Below, piece by piece: positions 22,954-23,057 of a stretch of DNA of 64,000 nt (position 1 is its first letter; each line of letters starts with the position of its first letter). The DNA comes from Escherichia coli. Its GTDB lineage: Bacteria; Pseudomonadota; Gammaproteobacteria; Enterobacterales; Enterobacteriaceae. The notes beneath the pieces are model-generated. The model searched no databases. It saw only the letters and a program-made list of their open reading frames with translations, and was not told the DNA's origin. The stretch is from the NCBI RefSeq assembly GCF_003334305.1, contig NZ_QOWS01000013.1; one strand, 5' to 3'. The position numbers were made by a program, and so were the translations under genes.

Positions 22954-23057
22954 ATTTGGCAGACAGCGTCTGCCAAATCTTTGCCGATGGGAATTCTGCA
23001 GATGGTGTCTGCGGAATTCCCAATGGTGTTAATTCGCCAGACACTGTCTGGCGAATT
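22954..23057. repeat. Array of three palindromes with centres exactly 39 bp apart (22966, 23005, 23044)
   Basis: ATTTGGCAGACagcGTCTGCCAAAT (22954-22978), GGGAATTCTGCAGAtggtgTCTGCGGAATTCCC (22989-23021, one G·T), AATTCGCCAGACAcTGTCTGGCGAATT (23031-23057); shared AATT..CAGAC / GTCTG..AATT arms. Confidence 0.7.

Follow-up and report, generated by a model that had tools for sequence, protein, structure and literature searches.

An in-frame DNA palindrome in the DUF1016/YhcG nuclease genes of bacteria, archaea, and phages

The YhcG (DUF1016) nuclease genes carry a perfect or near-perfect DNA palindrome with 11–14 bp arms at one position and in one reading phase, seen in 76 of 80 family genes from many phyla and in 62 of 67 phage-borne genes down to 28% identity. 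The arm sequences differ completely between genes but stay complementary, and the encoded peptides (e.g., IRQTVSGEL, ISETVSRKS, IVVSLIRQL, and IVQQAVAQL) largely follow the DNA, such that the signature peptide motif of the family is the translation of a conserved palindrome whose function is unknown. We found no description of this element in full-text searches of the literature on yhcG/DUF1016 and PDC-S02. The element was noted in a 64-kb stretch of E. coli DNA (hereafter the window), where three copies remain in a truncated yhcG gene, and the relevant features are as follows.

22954–23359, minus strand: truncated yhcG, comprising the DUF1016_N domain plus the palindromic linker (residues 1–135 of 375), annotated by RefSeq as a pseudogene
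23031–23057, minus strand: palindrome unit 1, AATTCGCCAGACA-C-TGTCTGGCGAATT (13+13, perfect), encoding (E)IRQTVSGEL, residues 102–110 of YhcG
22988–23022, minus strand: palindrome unit 2, TGGGAATTCTGCAGA-TGGTG-TCTGCGGAATTCCCA (15+15, with one T.G on the plus strand), encoding IPQTPSAEF
22954–22978, minus strand: palindrome unit 3, ATTTGGCAGAC-AGC-GTCTGCCAAAT (11+11, perfect), encoding IWQTLSAK
22953/22954, no strand assigned: rearrangement junction at the outer foot of unit 3
22483–22953, minus strand: foreign segment replacing the 3′ two-thirds of yhcG and the downstream "D" palindrome, carrying a 101-aa ORF (22561–22863; the longer call is 22558–22899)

The original prediction of three palindromes centered 39 bp apart and read in frame on the minus strand was confirmed in every detail. 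The arms lie at 22954–22964/22968–22978 (loop AGC, center 22966), 22988–23002/23008–23022 (center 23005, with an inner C/A pair that is not complementary), and 23031–23043/23045–23057 (center 23044), with a start-to-start spacing of 39 and 39 bp. The degenerate pattern AATTNNNCAGACNNNGTCTGNNNAATT, allowing up to 3 mismatches, hits only these three sites in 64 kb against 0.04 expected, and 0 of 100 shuffles reached three. The whole 131-nt region gave RNA folding z-scores of −9.2 (plus strand) and −8.8 (minus strand), while the single units fold as DNA at −11 to −15.4 kcal/mol (z −5.8 to −9.3). The minus-strand ORF 22880–23359 reads ...EIRQTVSGELTPLGIPQTPSAEFPSAKIWQTLSAKL... and matches Pfam DUF1016_N (E = 1.5e-27, residues 19–111 of the ORF). 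The prediction had also likened the first nonapeptide to an EIVQ-x-L motif of DUF1016 proteins, which is correct, as distant family members encode IVQQAVAQL from the palindrome ATTGTGCAACA-AGC-TGTTGCACAAT.

The gene order in this part of the window is nanK, nanQ (yhcH), a 101/113-aa ORF, the yhcG fragment, and gltD. A megablast search against 5426 complete E. coli genomes found exactly this arrangement in 720 genomes, whereas in most other genomes only window 22954–23545 matched, there lying inside an intact 375-aa yhcG. Intact yhcG genes from strain PEC1012 (100% identical) and K-12 (about 92%) carry the same 3 × 39 bp as ordinary coding sequence, with unit 1 identical and the K-12 allele having CAGACGGTGTCTG at the center of unit 2. 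Homology to intact yhcG begins exactly at 22954, and the PD-(D/E)XK nuclease domain (YhcG_C; the full gene is Pfam PF17761 + PF06250) is missing, indicating a yhcG pseudogene truncated by an illegitimate joint at a hairpin foot. To the left lies foreign DNA (22545–22949); DNA about 85% identical to it sits at prophage or integrase borders in Enterobacter and Yersinia, with no DUF1016 gene or palindrome nearby. The small ORF on this segment is named "transposase" by NCBI, yet no match was found in Pfam, NCBIfam, PHROGs, or PADLOC, so that this name is not backed by any domain.

Within E. coli, yhcG alleles have one, two, or three units, giving proteins of 349, 362/370, and 375/382 a.a., and an O157-type allele has lost units 2–3 through an 80-bp deletion and is frameshifted. 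Units in different alleles and species of enterobacteria have different arm interiors (CGC/GCG, CCG/CGG, TGG/CCA, GTG/CAC, CTC/GAG, and CTG/CAG) but remain perfectly complementary, and the single Salmonella unit is ATTCCGCAGAC-ACT-GTCTGCGGAAT. Divergence between E. coli alleles is concentrated in about 200 nt that end exactly at the last palindrome. Interestingly, the right arm of K-12 unit 3 (GCCAAATC) is the ancestral A-K-S codon run of ...LAKSFPLPW (GCCAAAT(C) in the window copy), and the left arm is its reverse complement, which looks as if the arm was written by copying the opposite strand. The same palindrome type also occurs outside the ORF; the "D" palindrome (ATTCTGCAGACA-C-TGTCTGCAGAAT) lies 16 nt past the yhcG stop in every E. 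coli with an intact 3′ end (and is missing from the window), while a lone copy lies in the 67-bp nanQ-gltD spacer of strains that have no yhcG at all. These two positional homologues stay perfect and differ from each other by compensated changes. The flanks of the empty site do not match a simple deletion product, so insertion or excision of yhcG at the hairpin was rejected.

We examined 80 DUF1016 loci at 50–67% identity from Beta-, Gamma- and Deltaproteobacteria, Acidobacteria, Cyanobacteria, Cytophagales, Planctomycetes, Actinobacteria, Nitrospirae, Gemmatimonadetes, and a Methanoperedens archaeon. A blind hairpin scan found a perfect palindrome 270–340 nt into nearly every gene, and with a fixed criterion (at least 9 of 11 Watson-Crick pairs at offsets 2–12 from the center), 76 of 80 loci had at least one unit, with three of the four lacking a unit being N-terminally truncated loci. 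All units share one reading phase, unit-to-unit spacings are 39 bp (14 times), 48 bp (9 times), and 42 bp (3 times), and 83 of the 102 windows with at least 10 of 11 pairs anywhere in these loci are these units. In a second set of 67 non-redundant phage-borne genes at 28–60% identity, the element was present in 62, including 14 of 14 at 28–31%. In that set the core is entirely different, with examples including the IVQQAVAQL-encoding palindrome noted above (the classic family motif), ATTGCGTCCGC-AGT-GCGGACGCAAT encoding IASAVRTQL, and ATTGTCGTATC-ACT-GATACGACAAT encoding IVVSLIRQL. A low-GC, BREX-linked gene has three units of the ATTCTTCCGAC-AGT-GTCGGAAGAAT type. Taken together, the element is a DNA palindrome of about 25–29 bp with 11–14 bp arms, a 3-nt loop of type R-S-Y, and A/T-rich ends (R-ATT...AAT-Y), centered on codon position 1 of the fifth codon of the nonapeptide (I-x-Q-T-x-S-x-x-x, or IVQQxVAQL in distant members) at the boundary between the N-terminal domain and the PD-(D/E)XK nuclease domain, and occurring in 1–3 or more tandem copies. 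All three window units fit this anatomy.

The arm interior is free to change as long as both arms change together. We counted 201 cells changed on both sides against 60 in shuffles (0 of 500 shuffles reached this), with a covariation score of 0.442 against 0.136 and one-sided changes almost absent. In 163 unique units there were 1651 Watson-Crick pairs, 17 G.T, 33 A.C, and 92 transversion mismatches, and the loop set is closed under reverse complement (ACT 43/AGT 31, ACC 18/GGT 12, GCT 14/AGC 14, and GGC 10/GCC 5). Given the units were picked with a pairing threshold, the percentage paired is partly circular, although the location, phase, codon, and covariation statistics are not; the sequences also share ancestry and the family is spread by horizontal transfer, so the counts are not independent events. 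Codon choice is likewise overridden; with the same peptides and each gene's own codon usage, 5.5 of 11 pairs are expected against 10.2 observed. Within units, Thr is ACA (63) or ACG (28) in 91 of 91 cases, with no ACC or ACT despite these making up 46% of Thr codons in the same genes, Ser is TCT in 86 of 96 cases (16% in the same genes), and Ile is ATT in 73 of 75 cases (32%). The units are 44% GC inside genes of 59% GC. In the AF2 model of E. coli YhcG, units 1–2 lie in a low-confidence coil (residues 97–125, pLDDT about 50), whereas unit 3 is a weak helix. The peptide keeps some conservation (Ile at position 1, Thr/Ser at 4, a hydrophobic residue at 5, and Lys/Glu at 8), and a protein-level contribution is therefore not excluded.

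We consider it more likely than not that the constraint acts on DNA rather than on mRNA or protein, an inference well supported by the scarcity of wobble pairs, the strand-symmetric loops, and the perfect extragenic copies. It is similarly inferred that the arms are kept identical, and new units made, by intrastrand template switching or gene conversion, with purifying selection keeping at least one copy per gene. Template switching is a published mechanism for keeping inverted repeats perfect and inverting their spacers, with comparative evidence (PMC5941160), coding-sequence effects (PMC8604942), and hairpin creation and maintenance (10.1101/2021.04.15.439925) described, and would account for the pairing pattern, the strand symmetry, and the origin of unit 3. 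The retention of a single palindrome, constant in length, loop class, and A/T-rich ends, at one in-frame position of one protein family across bacteria, archaea, and phages, where it dictates a family signature peptide, is not described in those papers. Only weakly can it be inferred that the element works as a hairpin or cruciform recognized by structure plus its conserved ends and loop, with the DUF1016 protein itself being the most plausible reader, for autoregulation or self-recognition of a defense-associated nuclease. YhcG matches the PADLOC candidate defense family PDC-S02 and is often embedded in type I R-M and BREX loci (PMC9881135), yet nothing links the element to binding by YhcG. 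More speculative still, and doubtful at present, every gene of the family may need to carry such a site for recognition by shape by its own nuclease, with the amino acids as passengers and the same hairpins acting as breakpoints for the cassette-like rearrangements seen at this locus.

Two other readings remain possible, though we regard each as unlikely. The selected molecule could be the yhcG transcript, with hairpins at the domain boundary pausing ribosomes, stabilizing or processing the mRNA, or binding a protein for translational control; the element always lies inside the transcribed ORF in one phase and at a domain boundary, and the RNA folds are very stable. However, G.U pairs on the sense strand are no commoner than any other mismatch (17 of 142 non-Watson-Crick cells), the loops are symmetric under reverse complement, untranslated copies stay perfect, the stems stay A/T-rich even in genes above 60% GC (not what selection for stability alone would give), and no Rfam family matched (best hits of 12–16 bits against thresholds of 34–88). 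Nonetheless, template switching would restore only Watson-Crick pairs and so could mask wobble tolerance (10.1101/2021.04.15.439925), meaning selection on DNA and on RNA cannot be strictly separated. An antisense-RNA reading, suggested by three of three E. coli mismatches being G.T on the plus strand, was not borne out in the large set, where A.C mismatches (33) outnumber G.T (17) and transversions are commoner. Alternatively, a function-less quasi-palindrome in a tolerant linker may be kept perfect, duplicated, and spacer-inverted purely by replication template switching (PMC5941160), consistent with the compensated multi-base changes between close alleles, the variable copy number, the predicted disorder of units 1–2, and the perfect relics in pseudogenes and intergenic DNA. 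Against this, at least one copy is retained in nearly all genes down to 28% identity even though whole units are easily deleted in frame, arm length, loop class, ends, and position are constant, and rare codons are forced against a strong GC bias, whereas a neutral palindrome should be lost or drift in composition.

Of the readings offered in the original prediction, that of a triplicated and palindromised segment of a DUF1016 gene is supported, while that of operator sites for the adjacent orphan ORF is not supported and appears very improbable. The palindromes do lie 55–160 bp upstream of the ORF start on the minus strand, but they predate the juxtaposition as coding sequence of intact yhcG, homologues of the ORF in Enterobacter and Yersinia lack them, neither a sigma-70-like promoter nor an intrinsic terminator was found in 22400–23600, and the differing arm interiors do not fit a single sequence-specific binder. 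Even less probable is a dispersed repeat (REP/BIME, ERIC, or a MITE) that landed in the gene, despite the palindromic unit structure and the few extragenic copies next to the gene. The element is at a single locus in 4767 of 5426 E. coli genomes (median 1, maximum 2 places, nearly all within yhcG), and its phase and position are fixed. Of 41 exact-pattern hits in 2.9 million viral contigs, 23 lie inside DUF1016 ORFs and 3 in DUF1016 remnants; about 15 lie outside recognizable DUF1016 ORFs, with about 10 expected by chance among terminator-like hairpins. Nor do the units form a CRISPR array, being only 72–78% alike as direct repeats and separated by 12–14 nt of in-frame coding sequence.

In anatomy, the element resembles protein-recognized DNA hairpins such as RAYT-REP, IS200/IS605 ends, and integron attC, which probably also have a stem with conserved foot and loop-proximal features, a freely covarying interior, occasional tandem arrangement, and extragenic copies beside the associated gene. 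It differs in not being dispersed, in lying inside the coding sequence of the associated gene, in having no mobility shown for it, and in its association with a PD-(D/E)XK nuclease rather than a Y1/HUH or tyrosine recombinase. Proteobacterial units share GAC-R-N-Y-GTC, with R and Y not covarying, a core that likely also occurs in two-fold symmetric sites such as matS (probably GTGACRNYGTCAC) and Tth111I-type sites (GACNNNGTC). However, the window units read CAGAC-RNY-GTCTG rather than GTGAC at the outer bases, the locus flanks gltBD and nan, and the element occurs in phyla that seemingly lack MatP. The core is replaced wholesale in distant members (AAC/GTT, CGC/GCG, and ATC/GAT), so a dimer site of this type was rejected as a general explanation.

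The element offers a defined 27-bp candidate substrate or cis site for the uncharacterized, defense-island-associated YhcG nucleases and a natural system for measuring how template switching maintains and multiplies palindromes inside genes. A sequence search of the PDB with YhcG gave no hit, with no structure of the family solved, and a Foldseek comparison of the AF2 model returned only generic PD-(D/E)XK folds (EndoMS/NucS, MGME1, and Cas4; E about 0.02), which are not informative on substrate. Finally, the palindrome is associated with rearrangement endpoints, namely the window joint, the O157 deletion, and in-frame unit loss, and explains the length polymorphism of yhcG (349–382 aa), the recurrent truncations and deletions at this spot, and the split N-only and C-only gene calls.

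In addition to the three in-frame units, we noted a fourth, extragenic palindrome of the same family (ATTCTGCAGACA-C-TGTCTGCAGAAT) 16 nt after the yhcG stop, in the convergent nanQ/yhcG spacer (nt. 1737-1763 of L001, the locus from E. coli PEC1012). It was the same in loci L002, L004, L005, L011 and L013, but is absent from the window and from Pseudocitrobacter, Salmonella and Citrobacter. Interestingly, strains with no yhcG at all keep one perfect 14+14 palindrome (AAATTCGCCAGACA-C-TGTCTGGCGAATTT) in the 67-bp nanQ-gltD spacer (nt. 2500-2528 of L012, the locus from E. coli Ec15103), the arms of which are identical to those of yhcG unit 1. 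The flanks of this palindrome do not fit a simple deletion of yhcG, and it might serve as a bidirectional terminator.

The nanQ-gltD interval is a hypervariable spot. In some strains (L007 and L013, the loci from E. coli 23CRST013 and 2017-02-2CC), yhcG, or a 123-nt remnant of it, is flanked by VWA-domain and DUF5682 genes instead of gltD or yhcF. In the O157-like strain 00_3305 (L004, nt. 1288-2335), an 80-bp deletion removes units 2 and 3 and frameshifts yhcG, while several other E. coli alleles show different in-frame losses of one or two units. In the window, the first 85 or so bases of the foreign segment (nt. 22486-22570) match unannotated places elsewhere in many E. coli genomes at about 76% identity (up to 3 places per genome), and may represent a small repeat or a mobile-element end. 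In K-12, an ncRNA (G0-10703) in the yhcF-yhcG spacer is reported to be divergent from, and antisense to, the yhcG 5′ region, with a 128-bp overlap (PMC7967276); it lies upstream of the palindromes, and the corresponding DNA is not present in the arrangement of the window.

In the PADLOC and representative-protein tables, many PDC-S02 sub-models and clustered proteins cover only residues of about 5-112 of YhcG or start at about 133-152. Gene calls therefore often end or begin at the palindrome position, which could reflect either real breaks or assembly and gene-calling problems at hairpins. At another locus (L066), three further units were noted about 600-730 nt upstream of the DUF1016 gene in a different frame (nt. 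118-275), probably a second, decayed DUF1016 copy in tandem. Lastly, a phage contig (L129; IMGVR_UViG_2534681820_000001) contains two 179-nt direct repeats (nt. 4686-4864 and 6008-6186, 94% identical), each carrying the palindrome plus a DUF1016 remnant, which flank a 1.3-kb two-gene cassette. By eye, this cassette looks like a toxin-antitoxin pair, with products of 176 a.a (with an MKLQKLLYF-type N-terminus) and 126 a.a.
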